From contig NZ_CP022736.1 of NCBI RefSeq assembly GCF_002257565.1, positions 2,100,284-2,164,283 on the forward strand: a stretch of 64,000 nt of DNA, given 5' to 3'. This DNA comes from Herbaspirillum sp. meg3 (GTDB lineage: Bacteria > Pseudomonadota > Gammaproteobacteria > Burkholderiales > Burkholderiaceae_D). The translations under genes were made by a program, and so were the position numbers. Positions within the stretch are counted from its first letter, which is position 1, and each line of letters begins with the position of its first letter. This document shows, one piece after another, positions 8,676 through 37,744 of this stretch. The notes below the pieces were generated by a model. It had not been told where the DNA came from, searched no databases, and was given only the letters and a program-made list of their open reading frames with translations.

Positions 8676-9638
8676 ATGGCACTGCTGGAAGTTAACAATC
8701 TGGTCACCGAGTTTCATGGCCGCGCCGGCGTGGCGCGCGCGCTGGACCATGTCTCCTTCACGCTGGAAGCGGGCAAGGTGCTGGGCATCGTGGGTGAATC
8801 CGGTTCGGGGAAATCGGTGACGGCGTTTTCGCTGATGAATCTGTTGGATGCGCCGGGACGTATCGCCGGTGGCGAAATTCGCTTCAAAGGCGAAGATCTG
8901 CAACGCGCCACGGCGCGGCGCTGGAGCAAGTTGCGCGGCGACCGTATCGCGATGGTATTTCAGGATCCGATGATGTCGCTTAATCCGGTGATGAAGATTG
9001 GCGATCAATTGCGCGAGACGGTGTCCATCCATCAGCGGCTACGAGGGAAGATGCTGGACGACAAAGTGTGTGAAGCCTTGCGCCGGGTCGGCATCCCGGC
9101 ACCGGAAGAACGCATGCGTGCTTATCCGCACGAACTCTCGGGCGGCATGCGTCAGCGCGTCGCCATTGCCAACGCCATGATCAACGATCCGGACCTGATC
9201 ATCGCCGATGAACCAACCACGGCGCTGGACGTCACGATCCAGGCGCAGATCTTGTTCGAGATGAAAAACCTGGTGCGCGACAGCGGTACGGCGCTGATCT
9301 GGATTTCTCATGACATCAGCGTGGTCAAGGATCTGGCCGATGAAATCTGCGTCATGTACGCGGGCCGCGTCATCGAGCGTGGTCCGGTGGATGAAATTAT
9401 CGCCCAGCCGCTGCATCCCTACACCAAGGGGCTGATCGATTCATTGCCGCAAGCGAGCAGCCGTGGCCAGCGGCTCTATTCGATACCGGGCTCGGCACCG
9501 CCGTTGTTGTCCTTGCCGCCAGGATGCGCGTTTGCGCCGCGCTGTTCACGTCGCAATGCTACCTGTGACACGGTTCCCCCGGTGGTGGCGGTTGGTACGC
9601 GCGAGCATCGCTGTTTTTATCCACTAGGTACACTATGA
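8676..9638 (+). CDS. ABC transporter ATP-binding protein, DppD-like
   Basis: Walker A GESGSGKS, signature LSGGMRQR, Walker B, C-terminal oligopeptide-ABC extension. Confidence 0.9.
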
Positions 9639-10621
9639 ATCCCATCCTTGAAACCAGGAACCTGAGCAAGAGTTTTGGGCTCAAGCAAAGCACCGTGCGA
9701 CGCGCAGCCCGTTCGCTCGGCTTGTCAAATCAGCCCGAGAAGAAAGTCTACGCCGTCAACGACTTGTCGCTGACGATCAACAAGGGTGAAGTACTTGGTC
9801 TGGTGGGCGAATCCGGTTGCGGCAAATCGACGGCCGGTCGCATGATCGCCGGACTGTTGCCGCCCACCAGCGGAGAGATCGCCTTCGAGGGCAAGCCGGT
9901 CGATTCGTCGCAGCCGTCGCGTCACCTCGAAACGCAGATGGTGTTCCAGAATCCCTATGCATCGCTCAACCCGCGCTTGCGCGTGGATCAGTTGATCAGC
10001 GAAGCCGCGCTCTATCACAAGCTGGTAGAAAAACGCGACGTGCCATCTTTCGTCGCCGCTTTGCTTAAGCAGGTTGGCTTGGACGCTACTTATGCGTCTC
10101 GCTACCCGCATCAATTTTCCGGTGGACAGCGCCAACGTATTGCCATTGCACGTGCACTTTCGCTGAATCCCAAATTTGTGGTGTGCGACGAAGCTGTTTC
10201 TGCTTTGGATGTATCTGTGCAGGCGCAGGTATTGAATTTGTTCATGGATTTGCGTGAATCGAAAGAATTGACGTATCTCTTTATCAGTCATAACCTGGCG
10301 GTGGTCGAATATATTGCCGATCGGGTCGCCATTATGTATCTCGGTCGCGTCGTCGAGTTGGCTGATACGCAGGCAATTTTTACGTCGCCAAATCATCCCT
10401 ATACACAAGCTCTGATTGCTGATGCGCCACGCCTTCAAGTAAAAATGGTAGAGCATCGTCCGGTGCAAGGAGAATTGCCGAGTCCGCTCAATCCTCCGTC
10501 AGGCTGCACGTTTCATCCGCGCTGTCCCCGGGCTATGCCACGCTGTGCCACCGAGCGTCCGATGCTAAGGAAGGTTGCAGAAGGGCATTTTTCGGCTTGT
10601 CATCTGAACGATTTGAGCTGA
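9635..10621 (+). CDS. ABC transporter ATP-binding protein, DppF-like
   Basis: Walker A GESGCGKST, signature FSGGQRQR; 4-bp overlap with upstream ATPase gene. Confidence 0.9.
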   Translation: MNPILETRNLSKSFGLKQSTVRRAARSLGLSNQPEKKVYAVNDLSLTINKGEVLGLVGESGCGKSTAGRMIAGLLPPTSGEIAFEGKPVDSSQPSRHLETQMVFQNPYASLNPRLRVDQLISEAALYHKLVEKRDVPSFVAALLKQVGLDATYASRYPHQFSGGQRQRIAIARALSLNPKFVVCDEAVSALDVSVQAQVLNLFMDLRESKELTYLFISHNLAVVEYIADRVAIMYLGRVVELADTQAIFTSPNHPYTQALIADAPRLQVKMVEHRPVQGELPSPLNPPSGCTFHPRCPRAMPRCATERPMLRKVAEGHFSACHLNDLS

Positions 10622-10810
10622 TGGCTGCTGTGCTGGTTTATTCGGATTGCGGTCATGCGCAAAATTGTTCTCTAAGCGAATGTCAACTTTCCTTGCAAAT
10701 TATGCAGTGAATGGCGTGAACCCTGGGGAAGTGAATTTGGAAGTGGTCAACGCGGTTCTGAAATTGGTGGATTCCGCAGTTAATCCGCAGTACGCCGACC
10801 TCTAAAAACA

Positions 10811-10838
10811 AAAAAAGCGCCTCAACAGGCGCTTAGCT
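10811..10838. terminator. GC-rich hairpin flanked by A-run (T-run on minus strand): candidate bidirectional rho-independent terminator
   Basis: aaaaacaaaaaaaGCGCCTcaacAGGCGCtt seen directly. Confidence 0.4.
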
Positions 10839-10867
10839 ATTTACTTCAACGAATCTGTATCCTTGTA

Positions 10868-10884
10868 TGGAGACGGAGGGATTG
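10868..10884. repeat. partial copy of tRNA-Ser 3' end (att-like direct repeat, distal copy 1)
   Basis: ggagacggagggatt identical to 15 nt of the tRNA-Ser 3' end at 42541-42555 (same orientation). Confidence 0.6.
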
Positions 10885-11044
10885 GCCTACGTTGCGCAGG
10901 CCGCTGAATCGCTTGCAAGCGATTCCCTTCGAATCTTTCACGTAAGCCGCGCAGGCGGCGTACTCATCTCCGGAGACAGGTTTTCTGGGAAAACAAAACG
11001 GGAAGCACAAATAAAAACACCCGCCGAAGCGGGTGTTTGTATTC

Positions 11045-11058
11045 TGGCGGAGACGGAG
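11045..11058. repeat. partial copy of tRNA-Ser 3' end (att-like direct repeat, distal copy 2)
   Basis: tggcggagacggag identical to 14 nt at 42539-42552. Confidence 0.6.
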
Positions 11059-11175
11059 TCGGCCGCAACACTGTTCGCCAAAGACCGCCATTGCGCATGA
11101 AACCTGCGCGGGGACTGGCTCATAGCCGAGTTCATATACGCCAGTGTTCGTCAATAATCTTCTGTATCCGGCGAC

Positions 11176-11198
11176 CGTTTGCTAGTTGGTTTGCTAGC
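11176..11198. repeat. tandem direct repeats GTTTGCTAG(TTG) x2 (candidate integrase arm-type sites, int-proximal end)
   Basis: cgtttgctagttggtttgctagc; near-identical array at other island end (42448-42475). Confidence 0.5.
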
Positions 11199-11247
11199 TA
11201 AAAGGCGGCCCCGATGAAGATTCGCCATGACGATATACTTCTAGGTT

Positions 11248-12534
11248 GTGCGATTTAGTCCTAACCAGGAGCATGAATTGGCAGGCGCAATTAATAAACT
11301 GACAGATACAAAAATAGAAAAGTCCGTAAAAGCAGCAAAACTAGCCTCTAGTCAAAGTAAGGGGAAGGCCTCAATCGTCGGCGATGGCGGAGGTCTATAT
11401 CTTCAGATCAGTAAAACTGGCGCGGCTTCTTGGCTGTTCAGGTATATGCGGGATCGTAAGGCGGTCGGATTGGGTCTCGGCGCATATCCTGACGTATCGC
11501 TCAAGAACGCACGCGTAAAAGCTGACGCGTGCCGCACTCAACTCGCGGAAGACCGAGATCCTTTGACTGAGAAACGAGCTTCTCAGACAGCCGCCAAGGA
11601 ACCTGTCCAAAAAGCGAAGACCTTTGACGAGTGCGCTGCAGAATATATCGCGGATCATCGTGCCGAGTGGAAAAACGCTAAGCATGCCCAGCAATGGGAG
11701 AACACTTTGGCAATGTACGCTTCGCCCGTGATTGGCGATAAAGCCGTGGATGCGATCACTCTGGTCGACATTAAGAAGATCCTAGCGCCGATTTGGACCA
11801 GGAAATATGAAACGGCGAGCCGATTGCGAGGTCGGATCGAGTCAGTTCTTGGCTGGGCCACAGTGCACGAGCTGAGGACTGGCGACAATCCTGCACGGTG
11901 GAAAGGGCATCTAGAGCACCTTTTAGCCAAAAGCTCGCTGACTCTACGCGCGGTCAAACATCACGCCGCGCTGCCCTATGCTGATATTCCAGCGTTCATA
12001 CGTGCGTTGTCCCAGCAGGAAGGGATGGCACGATGGGCGCTTGAATTTCTTATCTTGACGGCGTGCAGGACCAGTGAGATTTGCCAAGCAAAATGGTCCG
12101 AGATAGACCTGAAGAAAGGCCTGTGGACCATCCCGGAAGAGCGCATGAAGGCAGGCAAAGAGCATCGAGTGCCGCTTTCTGATCGGGCCTTAACGGTTTT
12201 GCACTCCGTCAAACCGCTGGCCATTGGAGAATTCATATTCCCTGGCGGCGTGAAGGATAAGCACCTCTCCAACATGGCAATGATGATGTTGCTGCGCCGT
12301 ATGGGCCACGACAAGATCACCGTCCATGGCTTTCGCTCGACGTTCCGCGATTGGATCGGTGAAACGACTCAACACGAGTTCCAAGTTGCCGAGGCGGCAC
12401 TAGCACACGGCCTGGCCGACAAGGTCGTCGCGGCTTATGCACGTGGGGATTTGTATGAAAAACGGTACGCGCTGATGCAGGATTGGAGTAACTATTGTTG
12501 GCCCGCAGAGAAGAGTAAAGCTATCGTTGTCTAA
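11248..12534 (+). CDS. int: tyrosine-type integrase (P4-like, N-terminal arm-binding domain)
   Basis: 428 aa; N-terminal …LTDTKIEK…GDGGGLYLQISKTGAASWLFRY… typical of P4-family integrases; C-terminal catalytic region …HGFRSTFRDW…; true start may be internal/non-ATG. Confidence 0.85.
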   Translation: MRFSPNQEHELAGAINKLTDTKIEKSVKAAKLASSQSKGKASIVGDGGGLYLQISKTGAASWLFRYMRDRKAVGLGLGAYPDVSLKNARVKADACRTQLAEDRDPLTEKRASQTAAKEPVQKAKTFDECAAEYIADHRAEWKNAKHAQQWENTLAMYASPVIGDKAVDAITLVDIKKILAPIWTRKYETASRLRGRIESVLGWATVHELRTGDNPARWKGHLEHLLAKSSLTLRAVKHHAALPYADIPAFIRALSQQEGMARWALEFLILTACRTSEICQAKWSEIDLKKGLWTIPEERMKAGKEHRVPLSDRALTVLHSVKPLAIGEFIFPGGVKDKHLSNMAMMMLLRRMGHDKITVHGFRSTFRDWIGETTQHEFQVAEAALAHGLADKVVAAYARGDLYEKRYALMQDWSNYCWPAEKSKAIVV

Positions 12535-12558
12535 TCTTAAAATTTAAAGACGCAATAT

Positions 12559-13485
12559 ATGAAACGCAACTTAGACCCTATCGGCTCACCAACACTCGAA
12601 AAGCCACACGGAGGATTTCACCCTAAACTTTTACGAGATGTTCTTCCAGCCAGCCGAGTTCCGCCGAGGTCCGCGGGAAACAAAGCACGTTATGGAGCGC
12701 TATCGGATTCGACCTCCTACAGTGAATATGCGTGGGAATTTTTGCGGAGAAATCGCTATTTCCAACAACAGTATGATGCATCGATGGGCGACTCTCGGAT
12801 CATATTGGCCTTGGAGAAATCCATAGCCGACGAAGGAGCCTTTGATTCCGGACTATTTGAAGACGTGCACTATAAAGAACCATACATACATAAAGATAAG
12901 AAAATACAAATAAGATGGGCCTTAGTTGAAAACGTTTTGACGCATTGTCGAGACAGCGAATATAAGGTGCAGAGCACTATTGATGTGCCGATTTTCTATG
13001 CGCATGCATATTTGAGGCGCGCATTTTTTGCTCTGGATCCAGGTTTCGACTTGCCACCAGTAGATATACAAATTGAAATCGTTCGACGCTTTCTTATAGA
13101 AGAAGCCCAAAGTAAAAAATTTATCACGCCCCGAGAGCGGAAGAGAAAAAATCCATCTAGAGCAAAATTACGGAATTTACTTAGGATCATTGATTTATTC
13201 TCTGCTCCAAACAGTGATCTTCGAAAAGTAAGTGAAGCTTTTATCACGCATGACCTCCAATCGATTTTATTCAGATCGCCTAATGCACGTTCTTTGCCTA
13301 CTGAATCAACTGGTTTGGCAGGTGTGCATCAACCATCAAGGACAAAGGCAGAAATAGCGGCAGATCTTCGTGAGGCCGAATTAAAAGTAGCGGAGAAGGC
13401 CATTTCGAGGCTAGCTACGGAAGCTTTTGATCTCGTCTACCGTGGCGGGTACTCAAAACTGATTCACTTCGATTATCAGACTTAG
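12559..13485 (+). CDS. hypothetical protein with YAWEFLRRNRYF motif (DUF6499/DUF2285-like, ICE/island-associated)
   Basis: 308 aa; motif recalled from island-borne regulator-like proteins; otherwise no recognised domain. Confidence 0.5.
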   Translation: MKRNLDPIGSPTLEKPHGGFHPKLLRDVLPASRVPPRSAGNKARYGALSDSTSYSEYAWEFLRRNRYFQQQYDASMGDSRIILALEKSIADEGAFDSGLFEDVHYKEPYIHKDKKIQIRWALVENVLTHCRDSEYKVQSTIDVPIFYAHAYLRRAFFALDPGFDLPPVDIQIEIVRRFLIEEAQSKKFITPRERKRKNPSRAKLRNLLRIIDLFSAPNSDLRKVSEAFITHDLQSILFRSPNARSLPTESTGLAGVHQPSRTKAEIAADLREAELKVAEKAISRLATEAFDLVYRGGYSKLIHFDYQT

Positions 13486-13796
13486 GCTGATGTCGCACTC
13501 CAACACTGCGCAGTGCCGCGGAAACAAAGTTACAAAATGTTACATTTTCTAGGTTTTACTCCAATACCTATTTATTACTTTTTCTATTATGAGGATTTTT
13601 AGATATTTATCTTCATTATGTCAATTGTTGACATTAATTAATGATATTTGAAATAACTGTGTATTTTTTTGAATATTATCCCTGCTATATCCCCAATATA
13701 AGAATATCTATTTTCAGATATTGGTGAATTTCATTTATCTATAGTTCACTCCGATCTCACTTAATTGTTAAGCGAGGAACAACCGGAAGATCCAAA

Positions 13797-16544: not shown

Positions 16545-17573
16545 CTAAGTTGGAAAGTTGTCACGAAACTCAGGTGGGCAATCGGGACTAGTCCAACTAT
16601 GCTTTTCCTCCGGATCAGGATGAAGTGCTTCCCACGAGTCAGCAGATGGCTCGCTAGCCTCAAACCATAGGGCTCGTGTTTCTTTGCTGCGAGCCACGAC
16701 GGTGGTTGGGGCAAAGGCGACGTGCCGGTGATTTACGGTATCCACCCAGTCTGAGGAAACATCCGAGTAGAGCGGGCCGATGGGGCGATGCGTGAAGAGG
16801 AGGCACTGCTCTGGGGAAATCGGCAGCGTGATTTCAATGTCAGGATTTTTCAGACCGACGGCACGTTCGAACGGATGCCGACGATAGGCAGTGGGATCAC
16901 ACCATGTCGCTGGAGCATCGGTGGTGAGGAATCCAAGAGGATCACATGCGCAAAGCACGGTCTTATGCATACCAAGCAACGTTGGAAGGATCACATCGAC
17001 CGCTTGATCGAGCAGAGTTGTAGTCGTCGTTTCCTTCAGATTGTCGAAGTCTCCTGGTTGAGGAGTGTAGGTGTTCGGCCGGTTAGCGTGAGGATGAAGT
17101 ATTGGTTCTACAGTTCTGCTTTCCCAGTCGGGGCCTGCGGCCTTCTCATACATCGCTTTCAACTCCTCCATGTGACCGAGGAAGTGATTGCGGCTTGCGG
17201 CGGTACGGGTATATGCCGTCGCAGCAAACAAGCATGCCCAAAACCAGTCCTCTTCAGTAAGGGCGCGTTTGAAGTTGAACTTGCTCGTTCTGACCTTCGT
17301 AAAGTTCGACTCTATGGTTCCTAGACCATGCTCAAGCCGGAGGTCATGAGTGCCATCGGGAGCCGTCAGCGTGTACATATCTGATTCACGAAAGATCTTC
17401 TCGGGCGCCTTGGCCTTTGGGTTTTCACCCTTCTTATCAAACAGCCAAACGTAAGGAGTGTTCTTGCTGGTCTTCGGCGCCGAAGGATCCAGCCAAGCTT
17501 TCAGATAGCATGCTGGGACGAAATGCTGCCTTCGCTGTTCATATTTCTTTCGCTTCATAATCTTGGGGCCCAA
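16545..17573 (-). CDS. DUF4238-like protein
   Basis: 342 aa; N-terminal …RRQHFVPACYLKAW… resembles the HxVPqfYLrxF signature of DUF4238. Confidence 0.5.
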   Translation of the reverse strand: MGPKIMKRKKYEQRRQHFVPACYLKAWLDPSAPKTSKNTPYVWLFDKKGENPKAKAPEKIFRESDMYTLTAPDGTHDLRLEHGLGTIESNFTKVRTSKFNFKRALTEEDWFWACLFAATAYTRTAASRNHFLGHMEELKAMYEKAAGPDWESRTVEPILHPHANRPNTYTPQPGDFDNLKETTTTTLLDQAVDVILPTLLGMHKTVLCACDPLGFLTTDAPATWCDPTAYRRHPFERAVGLKNPDIEITLPISPEQCLLFTHRPIGPLYSDVSSDWVDTVNHRHVAFAPTTVVARSKETRALWFEASEPSADSWEALHPDPEEKHSWTSPDCPPEFRDNFPT

Positions 17574-18562: not shown

Positions 18563-19141
18563 TTATTTGCCTTTGCTCTTTTTTCGATCATAAATAGAGA
18601 GCGAAATCAACACAGCAAAGGAAATCAACCATACATATAACATCGAAAATCCTGTAAACATATTCACAAATATACCCGCCCACAATACGACAAAGAACGA
18701 CCAAAGTGCGCGACGGCTGATAGGCGCTTGTCCATTTTTCTCCTCCCGCTCTTTCTTCCAAGCGAACAGTTGCTTGTACAACGAACGAATTCCGATAATC
18801 AGCCCTGCAGTAATTGCAAGCTGAATAATTTCGACAGAGTCATTGGTAATTCCAAGGCGCGAACATACACTGCGAACTGCATCAGCTCCCCAAAACCACA
18901 TCACCACACATATATAGACAGTCAGGATCCATGTCCAGAATGCTGGCCAATTCGCAGGCCCATATGCCATTGGTGCTCGCGGTCTAGAATTTGCTACTTT
19001 CGTTGCTGCGGCAAAATATGAATCAGAAGGGTTTACACCTGCGCTCATCTGTTCTGCGCTGCTTCCCAGGCTACTACTGTCAATAAATGTCCCCCGATTG
19101 TCTCGGGTAAATCCTTCGGTATCTTTATAGTCGCTAGACAT
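18563..19141 (-). CDS. membrane protein, hypothetical (soluble N-terminus plus 3-4 TM helices)
   Basis: Start at ATG 19139-19141 preceded by GGAG; long hydrophobic stretches. Confidence 0.5.
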   Translation of the reverse strand: MSSDYKDTEGFTRDNRGTFIDSSSLGSSAEQMSAGVNPSDSYFAAATKVANSRPRAPMAYGPANWPAFWTWILTVYICVVMWFWGADAVRSVCSRLGITNDSVEIIQLAITAGLIIGIRSLYKQLFAWKKEREEKNGQAPISRRALWSFFVVLWAGIFVNMFTGFSMLYVWLISFAVLISLSIYDRKKSKGK

Positions 19142-19377
19142 TCGCACTCCGTTTTTTTTGAATTGATGTAGTCCGCTTAAAAAACTTCCTCTGCATAATA
19201 CAAGAGAAAAATGCACCTTTGTGGGTTGCTGAGGCACTGTGCATTGGACAGCAACAAACGCTCAATCTCTAGAACTGACAGTCATTCACGTACTACCAAG
19301 AAGGTTTGGAGTGTCCATGGCGCTGAAGCCAAGTCTCCGGATATGATTGGCGTTCGGTACTCCATTTTCGTGCTCAG

Positions 19378-19998
19378 ATGACGACAGATTATAAAAATAC
19401 CCCGCGATCATTACGTGCCTCGGAAGCCATTGCAGACCGCGTTTCGAAGATCAACGAACCGCACGTTGCGGAGCTAACCAATTACGTCGGGCTGCTGCGA
19501 CAACGATTCCCTAATTCTTGGGAGTTTCCCGATTTTGATCCTTACGACGGCGGGCAAGAAGCCAAACTCTTGTTTCTGTTGGAGAAGCCGGGGCCGATGA
19601 CTTCCGCCAATGGAGGGAGTGGATCTGGATTTATTTCGAGGAACAACGACGACCCCACAGCTGCGGCAGTCTTCGATTTCATGGTTAAAGCAGGAATCCC
19701 ACGAGAGCGCACGGTTCTGTGGAACACGGTGCCAGGTTGGAACGGCAGTATCAAAATGTCCCAACAGGAACGTCGTGAGGGCCGGGCTGAACTTCCAACA
19801 CTTATAAATTTGCTGCCAAAGCTCAGGGGAGTTGTGCTGGTCGGGCGCCAAGCACAACGAGCCACGAAACAGATTCTGGAACTGAACGTGCCAGTTTTCC
19901 TGTCTAGTCATCCTTCAACTAAAGTGAGGTCTATTAATCCGCATCTCTGGAACGACATTCCGTTTCGTTGGGAGTCGGCTTTCGAGGCAATCGGGTAA
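19378..19998 (+). CDS. uracil-DNA-glycosylase-superfamily protein (UDG-like fold)
   Basis: 206 aa; …LLFLLEKPGPMTSANGGSG… (GExPG-like motif A) and …VFLSSHPSTK… (HPSP-like motif B). Confidence 0.55.
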   Translation: MTTDYKNTPRSLRASEAIADRVSKINEPHVAELTNYVGLLRQRFPNSWEFPDFDPYDGGQEAKLLFLLEKPGPMTSANGGSGSGFISRNNDDPTAAAVFDFMVKAGIPRERTVLWNTVPGWNGSIKMSQQERREGRAELPTLINLLPKLRGVVLVGRQAQRATKQILELNVPVFLSSHPSTKVRSINPHLWNDIPFRWESAFEAIG

Positions 19999-20072
19999 TT
20001 AATCGGCATGACCGTCCGCAACCGACCAGAGGCAAACACTGCCTAATACTTAAAGAAAAATCAGGAACGCAT

Positions 20073-21824
20073 ATGCGACTTTCAGAAGTTACGATTACGA
20101 ATTTTTGTTCATGTCATGATTTGACCATTCCGTTGGCTGGATTCAACCCAATTGTTGGGTATAACAACTCAGGAAAGTCTAACATTCTGCGAGCAATCAA
20201 TTGGTTGCTCAAAAAAGTGGTTCAGCCGGCGCACATGTTCCATGACGTAAACGAGCGCATGTGGGTAGCTGGTGTAATTGATAACGTAAACCTAGCACTG
20301 TTGCCACAGAACCAGCAGCAGGCGGTGGCACCATTTTTGAATGGGGGAGCACTGAAAGTCAGACGGATCCAACCTTCGCCCGGCTGCTCTGCGAATCAGG
20401 TCAAAGTCGAGGTATTCGACTATGCAACCAACAACTGGTCCGACAATCCCGCGGGGCTCGACAACGCGCTGGCAGTCTTGTTTCCCGAGCCGCTCTACAT
20501 TGAGGCGATGGAAAACGCCGGTGAAGATATTGGCAAGTTTGGTGCAAAGAACACCATTGGTTTATTGCTTAAACAGGTGCTCGCGCAGATTCAAGCTCAG
20601 AATGCGCCGGCGATTGCCGCTATGCAAGTCGCTTTCTCCCAAGTGTCGACCTTTCTTTCGGGGCAGCACCGGTTGGCCGAGCTTGCCACGTTCGAGACCA
20701 ATGCAAGCAACGCCATCACTTCCTTCTTTCCCGGACTGTCTCTGCACCTGAACTTTGCGACGCCGAGCATCGAGGAAATTTTTAAGACCTCCACAGTGAC
20801 TTTATCAGACTCTGAAGGGAGTCCTCGCCCAATATCGTCATTGGGGCATGGTGCACAGCGCAGTGCGCAAATGGCGCTTATCAAGCTGCTTGCCGACATG
20901 ACGAGCGCGACCGGAGGTAATCCAGGCGGCACCATCGTACTTCTGATCGACGAACCAGAACTGTGCCTACATCCGCAGGCGGTGGAGTTGCTGCGGGAAT
21001 CCCTGCTGCTGCTATCTACTCAAAACTTCCAGGTCATCTTCTCTACGCATTCGCCACTGCTCATAGGGCATACGCATGCGTTACAGACCCTTATGGTCTA
21101 CAAGGGAGCTAACAATCGTACGGTGGCGCGCCAGAAGCTGCAGTCGGCGGCAGATGCGCTGAATGCTAACCCGGCTCAGACCGAGGCGGTGTTTTCGCTG
21201 CAAGCAGCGACACATATATTATTTTCCGAGAAAGTCTTGTTGGTGGAGGGTAAGACTGAAATGATGTTGGTGCCATCAATCTACCAGACTGTAAAGGGGC
21301 GCTCCTATATGCACGACAGAGGTTGCCTAGTCTCTGGTTCCAGCAGTTCTTCGCTCCTGCCGATGATGGCCATTCTGCGCGCGGTGGGCTACGCACCCAA
21401 GGCCCTCGCAGACTTGGATTTCGCCTTCAAAGTGGCTACGAATTCCGGGCTGCTTTCCACTACCGATCCAGATATCTTGGCTTGCAAGACATGGTTTACC
21501 GCCAACGCTGCGCAACTCAACGTGTTTCTAGGCGCTGACGGACTTCCGACCAAACAAAGCCCTCAAGGTGTGTGGTCGGCCCTGAAACCCGCTGAGGTCT
21601 TCGAGCTGATGGCACAAGCAATGGCGGCTGAAGTAGATCGTATTGTGACCTCCTTGCGCGCACATAGCATCTGGCTTTGGTCCGGTGGGGCCATCGAAGC
21701 CCACCTCGGAATCCAAAAGAACAATCCTGCCCGTATTGGCTTCATCAACACTGCGCGGTTGAATGGCAACCTGAATCACGCGATTTCGCCGCAGACCTTG
21801 GTGGACTTGGCGCACTGGATGTGA
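20073..21824 (+). CDS. OLD-family nuclease (ABC-type ATPase + C-terminal Toprim)
   Basis: N-terminal …ITNF…PIVGYNNSGKSNILRAINWLL (OLD/AAA_15-21 P-loop), Walker B …VLLIDEPELCLHPQA…, Toprim …VLLVEGKTEMMLVPS… with …LADLDFAFK… (DxD). Confidence 0.8.
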   Translation: MRLSEVTITNFCSCHDLTIPLAGFNPIVGYNNSGKSNILRAINWLLKKVVQPAHMFHDVNERMWVAGVIDNVNLALLPQNQQQAVAPFLNGGALKVRRIQPSPGCSANQVKVEVFDYATNNWSDNPAGLDNALAVLFPEPLYIEAMENAGEDIGKFGAKNTIGLLLKQVLAQIQAQNAPAIAAMQVAFSQVSTFLSGQHRLAELATFETNASNAITSFFPGLSLHLNFATPSIEEIFKTSTVTLSDSEGSPRPISSLGHGAQRSAQMALIKLLADMTSATGGNPGGTIVLLIDEPELCLHPQAVELLRESLLLLSTQNFQVIFSTHSPLLIGHTHALQTLMVYKGANNRTVARQKLQSAADALNANPAQTEAVFSLQAATHILFSEKVLLVEGKTEMMLVPSIYQTVKGRSYMHDRGCLVSGSSSSSLLPMMAILRAVGYAPKALADLDFAFKVATNSGLLSTTDPDILACKTWFTANAAQLNVFLGADGLPTKQSPQGVWSALKPAEVFELMAQAMAAEVDRIVTSLRAHSIWLWSGGAIEAHLGIQKNNPARIGFINTARLNGNLNHAISPQTLVDLAHWM

Positions 21825-21972
21825 ACGTATGTAATTTTCTAGAGCAATGTCAAGTTTACGACTAAACCCGATAGCGGATGACTCACCTTCGCCGTACGTT
21901 AAACTCCTCACTTCTGGGGACCGAAATGTACTCCAAGTATCCCGTCACGAATAATGAGCATATAACTTTTTC

Positions 21973-22995
21973 ATGCACTCAGACCAACATCCCGGCCGTC
22001 GCTTTGAAGAACTCGTGGCAGATTTGTTTAAGCGGATCCAAAAAGACAAAGTGATGTCTAACATCCAGCATCCTGGAGAATTAGGCCACGATTTCGAAGT
22101 AGATATTCTTTTTGGTAAATTGAACAATAGAACAGTGGTAGAGGTGAAACTCTACAGGTATTCATCTCCTCCACAGGTCGAAATTTTTGTCCGAGCACTG
22201 CGCCAAACTCAGCAAATCAAACGCAATGCGAACGCGAAAAGAGGCATTCTCGTAATTGGCTGCCCGATGACACCAATGCTCGAGGACGCCACAAAAGCAT
22301 ATAGCGAAATTGAGGTGTGGGATGCGAACGCTATTTTTAAGTACGCATCTCCATTTTCAGACCTATTAAAAGAATTCGAGCGGTTATTCGAAGTCAGTGC
22401 GTCGTTGGTTTCGGAGCCCCAATGGCCGGAGCTAAGGAATGAGATTCAAGGCTTACCACCAAAGCATGGTGAGCAGATATCTAGCGAACTCAAGTCGATC
22501 GAACCTGGAAGGGATGGGGCAAAGTCATTTGAAGACGCAAGCATCAAAGCGCTTCAATATCTATTCGATTCCGATCTTCACGGCTGGTATGAACAACACG
22601 AAACTGAAGATGGATTACATCGTCGTGACTTGATTTGCAGAATCCTCCCACAAGCCGAGGTGTGGCGCCTGATGCTTAATGACCTGCATAGCAGATACGT
22701 TGTCTTCGAATTCAAGAATTATTCAGAGCCTATCACTCAGTACGAAGTGGTGACGACCGAGCGATATCTATATCCGTCTGCGCTTCGTAACGTTGCAGTC
22801 ATTATTTCTCCAAAGGGATGCGCCAAGTCAGCGGACAAAGTCATTAGCGGCGCTATGCGGGAGCACGGAAAACTTATCATCTCTCTGACGGTAGATGAAT
22901 TGGAAAAACTTCTGGTTGGCAAAGACAATGGCGCCGATCCAAATACCTATCTTTTTCAGCGAGTGGACGATTTTCTTTTGAGTCTTGGGAGATAG
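21973..22995 (+). CDS. restriction-endonuclease-like protein, two PD-(D/E)xK-like modules (Mrr-cat-like N-terminus)
   Basis: N-terminal …RFEELVADLFKR…GHDFEVDILF…VVEVKLY… (Mrr-like D…E.K); C-terminal …RRDLICRI…YVVFEFKNY… second D/ExK-like motif. Confidence 0.55.
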   Translation: MHSDQHPGRRFEELVADLFKRIQKDKVMSNIQHPGELGHDFEVDILFGKLNNRTVVEVKLYRYSSPPQVEIFVRALRQTQQIKRNANAKRGILVIGCPMTPMLEDATKAYSEIEVWDANAIFKYASPFSDLLKEFERLFEVSASLVSEPQWPELRNEIQGLPPKHGEQISSELKSIEPGRDGAKSFEDASIKALQYLFDSDLHGWYEQHETEDGLHRRDLICRILPQAEVWRLMLNDLHSRYVVFEFKNYSEPITQYEVVTTERYLYPSALRNVAVIISPKGCAKSADKVISGAMREHGKLIISLTVDELEKLLVGKDNGADPNTYLFQRVDDFLLSLGR

Positions 22996-23115
22996 TTTAA
23001 ATTACCGATTGGCGACTGCTCGATTCTAATACTACCCTTGGCAACAACGAGGCGGAAGCGATGGAGAATGTCTAATATCGGCCAGAAACCGTTCAACGGC
23101 CAGTGAAAATACGCC

Positions 23116-23210
23116 ATTGCTGACTATCGATAATGGTGCGTTTTCGATAGTTGACAATGACTTGCGTGAATTGCGATTTGATACCATTTGATGTCCGCAT
23201 CGGCCAAGAA
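23116..23210. repeat. imperfect direct repeat, copy A (shares ~33-bp block with internal 7-bp inverted repeat and ~22-bp block with copy B)
   Basis: ctgacTatcgataatggTgcGttttcgatagTtgaca … tttgaTGtccgcAtcggcCaaga versus copy B at 29766-29870. Confidence 0.7.
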
Positions 23211-23585: not shown

Positions 23586-24110
23586 ATGCCACTAGTCTCC
23601 CCACCGTTGTATTGCGTCAGCTCAATCTGCATGACGCGACCTGAATGGATACAAAGCGCCGGCTATGTCATCGCCGCAGTGGTGGCCGCTTTTTCCATCT
23701 TTAGTTACTTCTATACACAGAAAAAACAGCGCTCTTTAGATATCGTGAAATTCTCTCTTGATCAGCACAGGCGACTTTTCGACGATGAAGTACTTTTCGA
23801 AATATTAAATCTGATCGATTCAGAAGACACGGAACAACGCAAACTAGCTGCCCCCTCTATGGGCAACAAGAAAAGAAAATTGATCACGTTCTTTGAAGAG
23901 ATGGTTCTTCTTGTGAGGGCAGGCTATATGTCAGAGGATTTCGCACTCTACATGTTTGGTTACTACGCCATGCAGGCCAGAAACAACCAGCACTTTATGA
24001 CCGATATCAGCACTGACCACGCTGACTTCGGGATTTTTTTCGATTTTGCAGAACAATATGACCAGAAAAAAGAAGTCATCAAAGTAAGCAGAGTTGGCAT
24101 TACTCCATAA
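23586..24110 (+). CDS. small membrane-anchored protein, hypothetical
   Basis: 174 aa (or 159 aa from ATG 23631); single N-terminal TM (…GYVIAAVVAAFSIFSYFY…); AT-rich codon usage. Confidence 0.5.
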   Translation: MPLVSPPLYCVSSICMTRPEWIQSAGYVIAAVVAAFSIFSYFYTQKKQRSLDIVKFSLDQHRRLFDDEVLFEILNLIDSEDTEQRKLAAPSMGNKKRKLITFFEEMVLLVRAGYMSEDFALYMFGYYAMQARNNQHFMTDISTDHADFGIFFDFAEQYDQKKEVIKVSRVGITP

Positions 24111-24182: not shown

Positions 24183-27107
24183 ATGGCAACTGTCGAATAT
24201 CGATCCAATCGTTTCCCCAAGTCCTCCTTCGCGTCTTATCCCATCTCAATACCCGCGCTGGCTGCGGCATACCAGGCTTATTGTTCTGGTTTGCTGAGAA
24301 CGGATGACGAAGCCCGATTCTTTATCCAATCGTGGGTCGGGGCTCAAGACACACCACTGGATGCCGCTAAGCTCATTATTGAGACCTTTGTAGAAAAACA
24401 AGATCACGAATCATCAGATGATTCCTTTCAATGGCGGTGTCGATGCTGTGCTCGTCTGGTATCCGTGATCGAAAGCACAGCCGAAGCTGTAAATGAGCAT
24501 CCGGCATATCGTGCAGCCATTTACGCCGTACAACGGTTTCACCCGTATTTGTTCAAGGAGATTCTGACCCGATTACTGCTAGGACCTTATGGCCGTAAAG
24601 TAGCCAATAAAGCAGATTTATTCACTCAGCTCGCTCTGGCATTCGATTTTCTAGGTTTTCGCAAACGCAGTGAGGCTCTTTTACGGAATGTCCAAATCAT
24701 GTCGCGTTCCGGCGCTGTGCAGGCCGCCACTGCAGATTTCTCGCTACGCCTGTTGTCAGCGATATGTGCTTTGACAGACAGGTTTGAGCAGGTATTTTTC
24801 TTGAATGCTGAAGCGGAACCTTATGCCGAAACCGTATACGGATTATCTCCCCTTCAAGTTGATATCGCGTGGACATTGGCGGTATGTGGAACCGGAATGG
24901 TAGCGGAAGCAGCACCGCCCACACTATTTGAAATCACCGTGCACGCTCTAAGACATATCGAAAAACGAAATAAGGCCTCTGAGGATCTAACCAACGTTGA
25001 TATGCTAATGCACGGTTTGGATCGGAGTCGACGACCTGGTCTTTCCTCGTTGTCTTGCATAACCACACTCCGAATTTTGCGCGAAGCCCCGCCTGAAGAT
25101 CTTGATGATGCAGATCTCGCAATGACATTTGTTAATACCGGTAATGCTGTTCTCAGAAATATCGCCCTAACGTCCAATTGGAATCTCGTGGCTCGCCACT
25201 TCTTCACGGAACTAATAAGGCTCGTAGATAGTGGAGAAATTAACAGGAGCCCAAAAGTTCAGTATCAAGTAGCCCTCGCCAATGCTGGCATTGGCTATTC
25301 TTATACAAATATCGCCAGTGCAACCGAGGGAATTGAGCAGGTGGACTTATATGAGAAAGCCCGAGAACATCTAGACGCTGCTATCGAGCTACTCAAGCAC
25401 TTTCATGACGATAACTGGATTGAAACCAGCGTCTGGGCTGTTTCTGGTCATGTTGAAGCAGCTTGTGGTCGAATTCAAAAAATGCATCAACGCTTCGCCG
25501 CTGCGTTATTGGCAGGTGCAAAATACTATCAGCTCGATGTTGAAGACCTCGTCCATTTTTTCAGCCCGGATTACGATACAAGGTTAAAGTACAGCGAAGC
25601 ATTGGTCACTACAGGCGAATTTCATACGGCTATTCTATTGGCGAAGGCTGCTGTCAGTGCAATTCATCACCATGCGGCACCGTCAGAAGAGGTAGCAGAG
25701 TTTGCGCAAGCATACATAAGCACTAGGACCTTGGCGCACCGAACACTAATCAACGAATTAAGCCAAGTTGGAAGATACAACGAAGGTGAGCTCGCATACG
25801 ACCTCTTGAAGCAGAATGAATACAATGAATTTACCAGGCGCTCATATTCTCGGGAACAGGTAGCTCAGTATGTCGCACTGACTCCTTTCGAGCTAGAGGC
25901 GATTCGGGAGTCTGGCTTAAGTGAAGCTACCGTCAATGCAAAGCAGATGGAGCATAGAGAGACCACGGTGAAGCTGCTTGCTCAAAGTTTTTCAGGATTG
26001 AATGAAGCCTTAAAGGAACGAATCAGAAGCCGCCATCAGCCAGATGATCTGGAGTCAAGACAAAACCGTATCGATCCATCGACACACCTGAGAGAAACTG
26101 AAGCGATTCTCCGTTTTGTCGCGTCGGGATCGGCAGTCTCGATTGCATTCTCGAGTTCCAAGATAAAAAAGCAACTTGTAGTTCCTTTTGATGAACGAGT
26201 GCTCGGGCCACTAATTTTTTCCTTTAGGCAGCAATGCCGCTTACCAACGTCTGAGCTGCAATCGGTGCAAGTACTTGGACATGAGCTATATCGTATTCTG
26301 CTTTCCCCAATTACAGATTACATCGACAACAATATCTCGCACCTCTACATTGAAACGGATCGCACCCTCGCTAACGTCCCGTTCGCGGCTCTCCATGACG
26401 GCGTCAATTATTTGATCCAGCGCTTTTCTCTCATTTACTTGAATAGAGGTGCATTGAGCATAGTGCCTAAATCAAACGTTGTGGAAACTGAGCACGCCGC
26501 GATTTTTGCTTGTACGGACGCGCCTGGAGAAGAGCTGCCCGGTGCCGGACAGGAGATTAAAATCATTGGTAATCAGCTTGGCAGAATGTCCCGCTTAACC
26601 GTGGATTGCTACGTCGATGAGAAATGTGCAGCCGAGGCTTTTGTACGTGAAATCATTAGGCCTCGCGGCGGGAAAGGTCTAATTCATTTGGCAACGCACG
26701 CAAACTTCAACCCTTCAAGCGACATATCATCAGGATTGATGTTTCATGATGAAGTACTAAGCATTCGTGACCTGAGAACAGAACTGGAAAAGTCAGGTTG
26801 TGATACGGGTCTCTTTGTCCTCTCCGCTTGTGGCACAGCTCGTCAGGACATTGATGTGGAAGGTTTCAGCTCAGTTTTACTCCGATCTGGCGTCAGAACC
26901 ATCCTCCCAACACTTTGGGAAACATTTGACGATTCTGCGCCAGAGTTCTTCCGTCTTTTCTACGCAGATATCCGCGACCTGTCATCCGCATCTTCCGCTG
27001 CATCTGCAGTGAGAGCCGCTCAGCTAGCATTCCTTACATCAAGTTCAGAATTCGCCCATCCGGCTCACTGGGCCCCATACATAGTTGTCAGTGCACAGGT
27101 TTCGTAA
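24183..27107 (+). CDS. CHAT-domain protein (caspase-like protease) with large N-terminal helical region
   Basis: C-terminal ~300 aa: …GLIHLATHANF… (catalytic His), …GLFVLSACGTARQ… (catalytic Cys), C-terminal …HPAHWAPYIVVS… typical CHAT ending. Confidence 0.8.
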   Translation: MATVEYRSNRFPKSSFASYPISIPALAAAYQAYCSGLLRTDDEARFFIQSWVGAQDTPLDAAKLIIETFVEKQDHESSDDSFQWRCRCCARLVSVIESTAEAVNEHPAYRAAIYAVQRFHPYLFKEILTRLLLGPYGRKVANKADLFTQLALAFDFLGFRKRSEALLRNVQIMSRSGAVQAATADFSLRLLSAICALTDRFEQVFFLNAEAEPYAETVYGLSPLQVDIAWTLAVCGTGMVAEAAPPTLFEITVHALRHIEKRNKASEDLTNVDMLMHGLDRSRRPGLSSLSCITTLRILREAPPEDLDDADLAMTFVNTGNAVLRNIALTSNWNLVARHFFTELIRLVDSGEINRSPKVQYQVALANAGIGYSYTNIASATEGIEQVDLYEKAREHLDAAIELLKHFHDDNWIETSVWAVSGHVEAACGRIQKMHQRFAAALLAGAKYYQLDVEDLVHFFSPDYDTRLKYSEALVTTGEFHTAILLAKAAVSAIHHHAAPSEEVAEFAQAYISTRTLAHRTLINELSQVGRYNEGELAYDLLKQNEYNEFTRRSYSREQVAQYVALTPFELEAIRESGLSEATVNAKQMEHRETTVKLLAQSFSGLNEALKERIRSRHQPDDLESRQNRIDPSTHLRETEAILRFVASGSAVSIAFSSSKIKKQLVVPFDERVLGPLIFSFRQQCRLPTSELQSVQVLGHELYRILLSPITDYIDNNISHLYIETDRTLANVPFAALHDGVNYLIQRFSLIYLNRGALSIVPKSNVVETEHAAIFACTDAPGEELPGAGQEIKIIGNQLGRMSRLTVDCYVDEKCAAEAFVREIIRPRGGKGLIHLATHANFNPSSDISSGLMFHDEVLSIRDLRTELEKSGCDTGLFVLSACGTARQDIDVEGFSSVLLRSGVRTILPTLWETFDDSAPEFFRLFYADIRDLSSASSAASAVRAAQLAFLTSSSEFAHPAHWAPYIVVSAQVS

Positions 27108-30984: not shown

Positions 30985-31339
30985 GCAGATCACGATCCAG
31001 TATGGAAACCGAATAGATTCGTACATAGTAATTACATTTAATTATTAATTTTAATTGGTAATCGAAAATATTCCGCTGATATACTGGGTAGTCATCTAGA
31101 CGCACTTGGTAAACAATAGGAATCAACATACTTGTCATCATGTTTTTTGACGAGGTCTATCCAAAGTTTTTCCGTTTTGAATCGAAGTCCTCCATAGATT
31201 TCTCATGATTGGTAGGTCTGTAGAAGCAAGTTCGTTTGTGATGTGACATCGGGGTGCTTTTGTCGGGGTAACGCGCCTTCAGCTAGTGGTCTTGACGGGG
31301 CCTTTTCAGGCCGTTTTAAAAAAGAATAAAAAGGTTGTT

Positions 31340-32662
31340 ATGGCCATAATTGATTTGGTGAAATGGAATGGAAATCCTTCCATTTTGGCTTGGCGTTTCC
31401 CGAGTGATCAACTTTCTACCTGGACTCAGCTGATCGTCAACGAGACGCAAGAAGCCTACCTTGTCAAAGAAGGGGTCTACCAAGGTCCATTTGGGGCTGG
31501 ACGGCATACTCTAGATACCGAAAATATACCGCTGCTGGCATCGTTAATGGGCTTGCCGTTTGGAGGGAAGTCGCCGTTTACTGCAGAGGTTTGGTTCGTA
31601 AATCGACTGACGAATCTTGATATAAAGTGGGGTACATCCGACCCTATCCAGCTACAAGATCCGAAATATCAGCTGATGGTACCTGTGCGGGCATTCGGCC
31701 AGTATGGCGTTAAAATTTCTGATGCGAAGAAATTCCTCCTCAAACTTGTCGGTACTTTACCCGGTTTTGATTCGGCCACATTGGCTGAATATTTCAAAGG
31801 TGTATTCACTACCAAGATCAAGACCAATATTGCTCAGGCCATTATAAAAAATGGTCATTCGGTGTTGGAGATATCGACTCACCTGGAAGCGCTCTCAGAA
31901 ATACTCAAGACGTCACTCGCTCCCGAAATGGAAGAGTTCGGCGTTAGCTTAGTGCAATTCAACATCCATTCCATCAACGTTCCGGAGACTGATCCTGCGG
32001 TCATCAGCTTGAAGGCTGCGTTGGCCAAGCGCACTGAAATGGGAATACTAGGATTCAACTACCAGCAAGAACGCAGTTTCGATGTATTGCAAACAGCCGC
32101 CGGCAATGAAGGAACTGCGGGGGGTGTAATGGGCGCAGGGATGGGACTAGGGATGGGCGCGGCGATAGGTGGGCCGATGGGTGGTGCCTTCGCGCAGATG
32201 ACTCCTATTATTCAGCCTAGTGGTCCAGCTGGCGGTTCTGGTGGAGCGCCACTGAAGTGTCCGAGTTGCAGCGCATCCAATCCCCCGGGAACACGTTTCT
32301 GTGGCTCTTGTGCGGCCAATCTTAATGCAGCAGGCATTTCTGCAAAAGCTGGCATTACCTGTGACAAATGCGGAACGAATATTCCTAGCGGCTCGAAGTT
32401 CTGCCCGAACTGCGCAGACGAAGTGAATCCATGCCCTGCTTGTGGCGAGGATAACGCCAAAGGCTCCGCCCAATGCCGAAGCTGTAAAACGGCGTTACCA
32501 GTTCCATGCCCAACGTGTGAAGCATCGGTGCCCACCGGTTCCAAGTTTTGCAATTCGTGTGGTAGCAAGATGACGCCCTCGTGCTCCAAATGTGGCGCTG
32601 AGCTCGTTGCTGGAGCCAAGTTTTGTAACGACTGCGGTCATCCTCAAAATCCAGCTTCATAG
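31340..32662 (+). CDS. SPFH/band-7-like protein (COG4260, virion-core-protein-like) with five C-terminal zinc-ribbon repeats
   Basis: N-terminus MAIIDLVKWNGNPSILAWRFPSDQLSTWTQLIVNETQEAYLVKEG… characteristic of COG4260; C-terminus has 5 CxxC…(F/Q)CxxC units (e.g. CPSCSASNPPGTRFCGSC, CDKCGTNIPSGSKFCPNC). Confidence 0.7.
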   Translation: MAIIDLVKWNGNPSILAWRFPSDQLSTWTQLIVNETQEAYLVKEGVYQGPFGAGRHTLDTENIPLLASLMGLPFGGKSPFTAEVWFVNRLTNLDIKWGTSDPIQLQDPKYQLMVPVRAFGQYGVKISDAKKFLLKLVGTLPGFDSATLAEYFKGVFTTKIKTNIAQAIIKNGHSVLEISTHLEALSEILKTSLAPEMEEFGVSLVQFNIHSINVPETDPAVISLKAALAKRTEMGILGFNYQQERSFDVLQTAAGNEGTAGGVMGAGMGLGMGAAIGGPMGGAFAQMTPIIQPSGPAGGSGGAPLKCPSCSASNPPGTRFCGSCAANLNAAGISAKAGITCDKCGTNIPSGSKFCPNCADEVNPCPACGEDNAKGSAQCRSCKTALPVPCPTCEASVPTGSKFCNSCGSKMTPSCSKCGAELVAGAKFCNDCGHPQNPAS

Positions 32663-32680
32663 TCCAATCAGACCTTCTCC

Positions 32681-33373
32681 ATGAAAACTGCTTCTTTAAT
32701 GAATATCGCCGCATTGGTAGTGGCCGTGACAGTTGCGACAATCGTTTTCATTTTGGTGCCTGAGCCTGCATGGAATTCCACAACGATTGCTACTGCGATT
32801 GCTTTTGTAGCGGCGATGGGATTTGTTTTCTATATTCCGTCTGTTCTGCGAAAACAGCATAAAAATACCGAGGGACGCGTGCAGCTGGCAGCGATTGGGC
32901 CGACCGGAGCGGTCAGCCTTCTCCTATTGCTGGTGACCGCAGGAGCTTTCGCGCTGGCGCTTGCGAATCATCCAGCTTGGGGGCTCGCACTTCTGACTTT
33001 TGGCATTGGAGCTTTCGTTGTCGCAAGTCTGATGCTGAACGCAGCATTGAAAGTTGTAGGGAACGTCTCCGTGAAATCGTCTGCGCCCAGTCGCCACATT
33101 GAATGGCAACGACAAGTATCGGCCATGGCCTTGCAATCGACACATCAAGAGTCTCTTGCAAAGCTGCGCGCAGTCGAAGAAAACTTTCTCTATTTGGCTA
33201 GCGATGTGCCAGGTGGCAGCCCATATGACGTCGATGTAGACCAGACTCTTAATGCTGTGTCGGATCAATTAGCACTAGACGGGGCGAACGATTTGCTCGG
33301 TCAGTTACGCAAACTTGACAAGCTCATCGCGCAACGCGATATCTACCTGCGCTCTGCTCGCAGCAAGATTTGA
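32681..33373 (+). CDS. membrane protein, hypothetical
   Basis: 230 aa; 4 N-terminal TM helices then soluble tail; 19-bp gap after upstream gene. Confidence 0.55.
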   Translation: MKTASLMNIAALVVAVTVATIVFILVPEPAWNSTTIATAIAFVAAMGFVFYIPSVLRKQHKNTEGRVQLAAIGPTGAVSLLLLLVTAGAFALALANHPAWGLALLTFGIGAFVVASLMLNAALKVVGNVSVKSSAPSRHIEWQRQVSAMALQSTHQESLAKLRAVEENFLYLASDVPGGSPYDVDVDQTLNAVSDQLALDGANDLLGQLRKLDKLIAQRDIYLRSARSKI

Positions 33374-33424
33374 TACTTGGCTTGCCGACAAAATTCTGAA
33401 CTTAACAATATCAGGGGATATGAA

Positions 33425-37397: not shown

Positions 37398-37399
37398 GA

Positions 37400-37744
37400 T
37401 CAATACTCGCCGGTCAGAAGCATGGTGGTGACAGATCGATCTGCCTCGGTGATGATGTAGATGCGGTCCTTGCCGATTTCGTAGGCCGATAGGATGCGCA
37501 TTTCGTGCTGGATCGAGAGCCTGTTCTGTTCGATGTCCTCGGCGCACAAGGTGCCATAGTCACCATGCTGATGACGGGAGAAGTAAGGCGTGGCGTTGAC
37601 GCCGTTGTGATCCAGCAGGTCGAGAGCGGCAGGTGTAGCGCAAACTAACCCGAGGGGAAATAGCGGCTCCTTCGACAGCTTCGTCAAGGAGTGCACTACG
37701 GCGGCATTGTTGGTTTCTGTTTTGTTATTCATGGAAGACCTCAA
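37400..37744 (-). CDS. hypothetical protein, translationally coupled to recombinase
   Basis: 114 aa; stop 2 bp upstream of recombinase start. Confidence 0.5.
   Translation of the reverse strand: MRSSMNNKTETNNAAVVHSLTKLSKEPLFPLGLVCATPAALDLLDHNGVNATPYFSRHQHGDYGTLCAEDIEQNRLSIQHEMRILSAYEIGKDRIYIITEADRSVTTMLLTGEY

Follow-up and report, generated by a model that had tools for sequence, protein, structure and literature searches.

A 64,000-nucleotide stretch of the genome of Herbaspirillum sp. meg3 (contig NZ_CP022736.1, positions 2,100,284 to 2,164,283; hereafter, the window) carries three neighbouring genes on one strand that encode, in this order, a protein of the uracil-DNA glycosylase (UDG) superfamily, an OLD-family ATPase and nuclease (Old) and a 340-aa protein with two nuclease domains. 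The UDG-like gene is at 19378-19998 (+; 206 aa) and is separated by 74 bp from the Old gene at 20073-21824 (+; 583 aa counted from the ATG), while the 340-aa nuclease gene at 21973-22995 (+) begins 148 bp past Old. This locus had been predicted to be a non-canonical antiphage module of two or three genes. Instead, it probably consists of three independently mobile single-gene defence cassettes that are stacked in one tRNA-Ser island. We infer the activities of the three products, their antiphage role here and any co-transcription or synergy between them.

A blastn comparison of the island with homologous loci divides the three genes into three blocks. The first block (19289-20028, +) contains the UDG-like gene together with 89 bp upstream and 30 bp downstream of it, and is 83% identical to locus L155 (over 19289-20028) and 80% identical to locus L156 (over 19289-19992). 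The second (20029-21865, +) comprises the Old gene with 44 bp of upstream and 41 bp of downstream sequence, and matches L001 at 81% (20029-21865), L002 at 76% (20056-21824) and L003 at 74%. The third (21883-23022, +) corresponds to the 340-aa gene with up to about 90 bp of its upstream region, and its matches are all at loci without a nearby Old, namely L157 (77%; 21883-22996), L008 (77%; 21940-23022) and L013 (76%; 21898-22995). These blocks abut almost exactly, at 20028/20029 and at 21865/21883. Moreover, every block brings its own upstream region of 44-90 bp and recurs elsewhere without the other two. Abutting blocks that each recur alone are the signature of independently exchanged single-gene modules.

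The distribution of Old and of the nuclease was also followed separately. The survey of Old covered 5 loci, obtained by searching genome contigs with a single Old sequence, and 29 loci on viral contigs. In Paraburkholderia dilworthii (L001), where Old is 86% identical to that of the window, a homologue of the 340-aa protein is located directly downstream, with only 31% identity. In Hydrogenophaga (L002; Old 80%), there is no nuclease gene and large unrelated genes adjoin, and in two Pandoraea species (Old 52%) housekeeping-type open reading frames (ORFs) follow directly, again with no nuclease gene. Three of the four intact close Old loci (L002, L004 and L005) thus lack the nuclease, which is likewise missing from all 29 viral-contig loci, P2 included. 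Conversely, the closest homologues of the 340-aa protein, found in Cupriavidus (77%; L013), in Burkholderia sola (76%; L008) and at L157 (75%), have no Old within 7-8 kb. Their neighbours vary, and include a 111-aa ORF with a YaaC-like protein, an AAA_16/AAA_22 ATPase, and an ABC-3C system (CTD2-MComp1-SMC_N). Across the family, homologues are also seen to adjoin GAPS4, a STAND ATPase, a PDC-S73-type REase-nSTAND3 protein or a DUF4062 protein; the neighbour of an Acinetobacter homologue is an overlapping 369-aa ORF, and some homologues have no evident partner. Conservation of the gene pair across genomes, which the original prediction had proposed as a check, was consequently not found, and Old and the 340-aa nuclease are, judging by these sequences, not an obligate pair.

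On its sequence, the product of the Old gene is a canonical full-length Class 1 (P2-type) OLD nuclease, with ATPase and Toprim in one chain. Its translation contains PIVGYNNSGKSNILRAI (P-loop), LLIDEPELCLHP (Walker B), and VLLVEGKTE and ADLDF (Toprim), so that the ORF positions and motifs first reported for it are confirmed, in agreement with Pfam AAA_15 (2.4e-26), AAA_21 (3.7e-20) and OLD-like_TOPRIM. The ABC-type ATPase region, including an inserted dimerisation region, extends over 20073-21200 (+; end approximate; Pfam AAA_15, AAA_21 and SMC_N), and the Toprim nuclease domain, residues 383-449, over 21219-21419 (+; OLD-like_TOPRIM, E=4.3e-11). A six-sequence alignment that includes P2 Old is collinear with the window protein. 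In this alignment, Walker A K35, Walker B D293-E294 and H-loop H326 of the ATPase are invariant, and so are E392, E396, D447 and D449 of the Toprim as well as E542 downstream of it. A longer ORF for this gene starts with a TTG at 19968; the ATG at 20073 is preferred because alignment with relatives supports it. P2 old is 33.1% identical to the window Old over 94% of the query (tblastn), and the best solved-structure relative is 6P74, the Class 1 OLD of Thermus scotoductus. The PADLOC Old model PDLC02358 matches residues 1-583 with model positions 2-578 of 578 (E=2.1e-195). This full-length match adds the window Old to a single-gene system that is already known, and the claim of a non-canonical system does not hold for an ATPase that has already been modelled in this manner.

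Class 1 OLDs are defined as single, isolated genes. P2 Old kills recBC cells only when its ATPase and its nuclease are both active, and Vc OLD from Vibrio cholerae restricts phage by itself (PMC7049728, PMC12392090, PMC10568477). Membership of other systems that contain an OLD-family protein was considered and rejected. In the case of Gabija, the gene downstream of Old encodes a PD-(D/E)xK protein and the best GajA model reaches only 2e-26, against 2.1e-195 for the Old model; as had been anticipated, the ATPase does not fall inside GajA. PARIS was rejected as well, given that ATPase and Toprim are in one 583-aa protein and AriA models (7e-28 at best) match its ATPase part alone. PADLOC and NCBIfam scores, together with the neighbouring genes, led to the dismissal of retrons too; the NCBIfam models for retron-Eco8, MADS3 and PtuA score far under their cut-offs. 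The ORFs between 14.8 and 27.1 kb yield UDG, Mrr_cat, DUF4238, a weak DUF4760, CHAT or no family, and none of them encodes a UvrD/PcrA-like helicase, a reverse transcriptase or a split Toprim; retron noncoding RNA was not part of this search. The original prediction was therefore right that no UvrD-like helicase, reverse transcriptase or separate AriB is adjacent to Old.

The UDG-like gene was also correctly assigned to its superfamily, with a Pfam UDG match of 28.1 bits against a cut-off of 24.3. Across 13 aligned homologues, an ExPG-like motif (E69-K-P-G72-P), the aromatic F85 and H178-P179, which belong to an HP(S) motif, are invariant. The protein has more than 1000 homologues, most of which are named uracil-DNA glycosylase, and no close relative of solved structure. 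UDG-fold proteins can serve in defence; for instance, Brig1 and Brig2 act against phages with modified bases (PMC11078745, bioRxiv 10.1101/2025.10.29.685425). Two copies of the window gene, with protein identities of 88% and 82%, are found in other islands, where both Old and the nuclease are missing. The surroundings of one copy comprise CBASS, Abi_alpha, an AAA_15 ATPase beside an HNH gene, and an integrase, and the other copy lies beside a MazE-like gene. In addition, tblastn found no UDG homologue at the other Old loci or 340-aa-gene loci checked. By this distribution, the UDG-like gene is a separate, unlinked cassette.

The 340-aa protein, which is identical (100%) to hmeg3_09645 of Herbaspirillum sp. 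meg3, is a two-domain PD-(D/E)xK protein that combines Mrr-type and FokI-type active sites in one chain. Its N-terminal domain (residues 1-146; 21973-22410, +) is of the Mrr_cat type, with a Pfam match of E=8e-8 when the domain is isolated and of E=3e-7 (residues 7-122) in the full protein; an AlphaFold2 (AF2) model of this domain has an alpha/beta nuclease topology. The C-terminal domain (residues 162-340; 22456-22995, +) matches no Pfam family and is a FokI-like PD-(D/E)xK cleavage domain, with a restriction-endonuclease-like fold and a conserved D...ExK. Among 34 diverse members of the family, D44 and E57 of the N-terminal site are invariant and K59 is conserved in at least 90%, while at the C-terminal site E187, D219 and E246-F-K248 are all invariant; the C-terminal half is conserved better than the N-terminal half. 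The Mrr-like N-terminus and the second (D/E)xK module that had been noticed before are thus both borne out. No internal duplication was detected when the two domains were compared with hhalign (probability 1%), and a PDB sequence search with the family found no match. Nothing other than the two nuclease domains is present in the protein, and no DNA-recognition domain is recognisable. No methyltransferase family was found among the ORFs scanned from about 13.8 to 28.5 kb, nor was any noted for the genes that adjoin homologues. Type II or IIS restriction-modification was rejected because a methyltransferase is missing from the ORFs scanned and a DNA-recognition domain from the protein.

This nuclease belongs to a large family. 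A word search returned 574 clusters at 90% identity, and family representatives at 50% identity number 1972 (E<=1e-3), 1357 (E<=1e-10) or 652 (E<=1e-30). Nearly all representatives are 335-365 aa long and match end to end. Among the aligned members, the catalytic residues are invariant regardless of the neighbouring gene. The top 150 representatives include no fusion of the nuclease with OLD. The family was not found in the literature searched for this analysis. The PADLOC model PDC-M36A gives a weak, partial match (residues 172-312 against positions 288-428 of 457; E=2.6e-7), and nothing was found in the literature on PDC-M36. In a phage collection, the only hit was a partial match to the C-terminal domain in two Klebsiella phage records. 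A plasmid collection yielded 110 distant homologues of the nuclease; no OLD-like neighbour was present at the four plasmid contexts inspected, and no close Old homologue was found on plasmids.

Some members of the family have particular contexts. At L116 (1700-5677), the C-terminus of a 1325-aa ORF is homologous to the double nuclease, and its N-terminal roughly 980 residues match no Pfam family. This ORF was examined as a nuclease-ATPase fusion and rejected as such, with Mrr_cat alone found in it, and it could be another kind of fusion or an over-extended ORF. In an Acinetobacter-type clade, a conserved ORF of 354-369 aa overlaps the nuclease start by 8-32 bp (L009 5899-7008, L041 4884-5960, L042 4896-5960 and L043 371-1477; no Pfam match in L009, the one scanned), and this ORF and the nuclease may form a distinct two-gene unit. 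At L021 and L157, nuclease homologues are found beside ABC-3C type systems (CTD1/CTD2, MComp1 and an SMC-like ATPase) in two different orientations. Each of L030, L032, L033, L035, L036 and L049 has a convergent ORF of 777-778 aa that is positioned like the ATPase of L021.

Several observations weigh against independent cassettes, and most of them concern the genes directly upstream of the nuclease. About 100 further loci of the nuclease family from metagenome and viral contigs were dereplicated to 86 clusters, and a profile derived from Class 1 Old proteins was run over all of their ORFs. It places OLD-family genes at the same-strand -1 position in 7 cases out of 60, as compared with 4 of 601 genes at other positions (odds ratio about 20, Fisher p=9e-6). 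In a conservative count, which drops the window and L001 (both ascertained via Old) and merges the related L029 and L034, 4 of 57 remain, as opposed to 4 of 601 (odds ratio 11, p=0.003). OLD-family genes are thus about 11- to 20-fold enriched directly upstream of the nuclease family, which would not be expected if the genes were stacked purely by chance. Three lineages have a strict Class 1 Old followed by the nuclease, with the same order and strand and a gap of 87-148 bp. These are the window, L001 and L029/L034/L040, the last having an Old that is 72% identical to P2 Old, a nuclease that is 50-52% identical to that of the window, and a gap of 88 bp in both L029 and L040; no megablast match to the P2-type Old and nuclease segment of L040 was found in E. 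coli genomes. For this strict pairing, only the L029/L034/L040 lineage is unbiased (p=0.087). In a scan of 57 neighbours, made up of 55 close same-strand upstream genes and two OLD-like neighbours added by hand, AAA_15/AAA_21 ABC ATPases were the commonest class (10-11) and an OLD Toprim was present in 6. At least seven distinct combinations of an OLD-family gene and the nuclease occur, with gaps down to 12-18 bp (L068 and L086).

Transcription and toxicity point the same way. No terminator was predicted in the 74-bp and 148-bp gaps of the window, so the genes could be a single operon, and by their arrangement the three may share one transcript, as do P2 old and tin. No convincing promoter was found in these gaps either; the promoter scan is uninformative, with 1 promoter-like site in 5.9 kb where 6 would be expected. 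Furthermore, the nuclease has no evident self/non-self device, and without regulation a double nuclease would be toxic, which would be consistent with the need for a regulator. Nevertheless, in about 88% of cases the same-strand upstream neighbour is something other than an OLD-family gene, and the association of OLD-family genes with the nuclease family is real but loose.

Old and nuclease pairs do not co-evolve. Between the window and L001, Old is 86% and the nuclease 31% identical, whereas between the window and L029 the figures are 32% for Old and 52% for the nuclease. At two metagenome loci (L086 384-3197 and L094 606-3621), nucleases that are 90% identical each lie directly behind an OLD-family type ATPase, and these two ATPases have nothing in common outside the P-loop region. 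In general, the pairwise Old and nuclease scores correlate negatively (Spearman rho -0.42). Such convergent adjacency without co-evolution argues against a specific protein interface, and fits either synergy at the level of the pathway or a common cargo slot behind old-type genes.

It is because of the positional enrichment that a facultative partnership between Old and the 340-aa nuclease is retained as a tentative alternative. According to this explanation, Old would be the sensor or activator and the double nuclease a swappable auxiliary effector, the two forming a further OLD class; more broadly, OLD-family nucleases, P2-type Class 1 included, would repeatedly recruit an Mrr-plus-FokI-like nuclease as a swappable effector or synergy partner, an idea that is similarly possible but doubtful. 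The orientation-specific enrichment is significant in its conservative form too, the combinations are diverse and some of them very closely spaced, AAA_15/AAA_21 ATPases lead among the 57 neighbours, and no terminator is predicted between Old and the nuclease gene. In addition, the coupling of OLD-type ABC ATPases with HNH, PD-(D/E)xK or PIN nucleases is a general theme (Krishnan/Aravind 2020, as cited in PMC12839542). However, most upstream neighbours, including those of the relatives at 75-77% identity, are not OLD-family genes, nucleases that are 90% identical follow unrelated ATPases, and fusions with Old are absent from the top 150 representatives. The window Old also retains a complete Toprim and belongs to a class that works alone, and strict Class 1 pairing has only one unbiased independent example (p=0.087). 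These features are better accommodated by three separate cassettes that have come to be adjacent, which is probably what the window contains.

The two other explanations are far less likely. One extends the partnership to all three genes, such that the glycosylase would make abasic sites in modified phage DNA, Old would nick them and the nuclease would complete the break. Their shared orientation, the short gaps without a predicted terminator and the fact that all three products are DNA-acting enzymes would suit such a pathway, but the UDG copies at 88% and 82% identity have different neighbours and neither Old nor the nuclease, and no UDG homologue accompanies the other Old or nuclease loci checked by tblastn; of all the explanations, this is the most improbable. 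Nearly as improbable is a non-immune role in DNA repair or in the maintenance of mobile elements, for instance if the genes were addiction or exclusion modules by which the island is kept stable. OLD-family proteins with roles outside defence do exist, as seen with archaeal Cran1 and with conditional essentiality in Salmonella, and UDG-family proteins are classically repair enzymes. Against this, the cassettes and their relatives are found among integrases and known or candidate defence genes (DUF4238, CHAT, CBASS, GAPS4, Abi_alpha, AAA_15 with HNH, and STAND NTPases), and the antiphage function of P2-type Old and of Vc OLD is proven. With regard to the antiphage module of two or three genes that was first proposed, its defence-type genes in a mobile island and a recurrent order of OLD and nuclease stand, while obligate pairing, linkage of the UDG-like gene and co-evolution do not.

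If the three genes are independent cassettes, each product would have its own mode of action. Like P2 Old, Ts OLD and Vc OLD, to which it is analogous, the window Old would act alone, nicking or degrading DNA by means of both its ATPase and its Toprim. P2 Old is unleashed once RecBCD is disabled. In the 340-aa protein, each site would cut one strand, and a monomer could in this way make a double-strand break. The UDG-like protein may be a Brig-like glycosylase that would excise an unusual base from phage DNA. Where the nuclease is located behind OLD-family genes, the arrangement probably reflects defence in layers or in synergy, or else a common slot for downstream cargo, rather than a specific protein complex.

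The island that was proposed to carry these genes is plausible. A tRNA-Ser(gct) gene at 42539-42632 (-), detected with ARAGORN, is its probable attachment site, and the 3' end of this gene is repeated far away, as direct repeats of 15 bp at 10869-10883 and 14 bp at 11045-11058. As candidate att sites, these repeats are at a distance of about 31.5 kb from the tRNA, and shortly after them comes a P4-type tyrosine integrase, at the far end of the island (11248-12534, +; Pfam Arm-DNA-bind_3, Phage_int_M and Phage_integrase). Inside the island, GC content drops to 45-53% from about 59% outside. Thus, the island plausibly extends over roughly 31 kb, from about 10.9 kb to the tRNA-Ser. A second tyrosine integrase (36429-37547, -) is within a 1.7-kb homology block (36430-38129) that is 86% identical at the DNA level to the island of L155. 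The cargo of the latter differs, and consists of CBASS, UDG, Abi_alpha and an AAA_15 ATPase with an HNH gene; in both islands, a dienelactone-hydrolase gene lies beyond the integrase. The island of the window may therefore be composite.

Other genes surround the three cassettes. Upstream, a divergent 224-aa ORF (18563-19237, -) has no family match, and a DUF4238 gene (16545-17573, -; Pfam E=1e-30) belongs to a family that was validated experimentally as a single-gene anti-T7 defence from a P2 hotspot (PMC9122126). Just past the nuclease gene are a small membrane-type protein (23586-24110, +), with a weak, sub-threshold DUF4760 match, and a 974-aa CHAT-domain protein (24183-27107, +). L001 also has a CHAT protein past its nuclease homologue (9475-13611, -), with 29% identity and on the opposite strand. 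Further along, the island may have another module at 31286-35506 (+), where a 458-aa SPFH/Band-7 protein that carries multiple zinc ribbons is followed by a 230-aa ORF and then a 709-aa TPR protein. Past the nuclease cassette there is a 36-bp intergenic element with a 7-bp inverted repeat (CTATCGA...TCGATAG), which occurs once in the window, at 23119-23154, and twice between the cassettes of L155, at 3555-3590 and 8786-8849. This element may serve as an operator, or it may be a motif of cassette junctions.

The preference for separate cassettes turns an apparent new multi-gene system into three ordinary mobile modules, and prevents a false call of a new system. The nuclease is a testable lead in its own right, as a large family with two distinct conserved sites and no recognition domain that resides in defence islands. 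If its recruitment by OLD-family genes were true, a further, facultative OLD class would exist and single-gene Class 1 Old could be the upstream half of a modular pair. Should the enrichment reflect synergy, for example with Old as the guard of RecBCD behind a DNA-breaking nuclease, it would be relevant to whether Class 1 OLDs act entirely alone.

Several known systems resemble parts of the locus. Gabija (GajA/GajB, Class 2 OLD) has the ATPase-Toprim architecture in common with Old, with matches at 2e-26 to the best GajA model and at 1e-9 to GajA in the PDB. However, no UvrD-like gajB was found beside Old or in the neighbouring ORFs scanned, and the Old model is better by about 170 orders of magnitude. 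Dyads of an OLD-type ATPase and a nuclease, which include Septu PtuA-PtuB and PARIS AriA-AriB, similarly place a separate nuclease gene directly after an OLD-family ATPase. In these dyads, as PMC12839542 describes them, the partner nuclease stands in for the Toprim, while the window Old keeps a complete Toprim, and the nuclease family lacks an upstream OLD-family gene in about 88% of the sampled cases. With Type IIS modules, such as FokI or R.BspD6I with its nickase N.BspD6I, the 340-aa protein has an identity of only 13-17%; it has neither a DNA-recognition domain nor a methyltransferase, and one and the same chain supplies its second nuclease unit, an Mrr_cat domain. In BspD6I two subunits cut the two strands, and the 340-aa chain would do likewise without dimerising. 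The UDG-like gene recalls Brig1 and Brig2, in that it is likewise of the UDG superfamily, small and stand-alone and moves between defence islands, a likeness of superfamily and context alone.

The comparison with P2 is the most extensive. The window Old and P2 Old are similar in length (583 vs 586 aa), collinear over their full length and 33% identical, with the catalytic residues kept, and, as with P2, no helicase, reverse-transcriptase or AriB partner is present at the locus. In P2, old is followed 175 bp on by tin, an independent exclusion gene that is on the same mRNA; in the window, Old is followed after 148 bp by the nuclease. The P2 old-tin locus is itself a documented hotspot for swaps of defence genes (PMC9122126, PMC13586616). 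By contrast, the window gene is in a betaproteobacterial tRNA-Ser island and not in a P2 prophage, and the place of tin is taken by the double nuclease.

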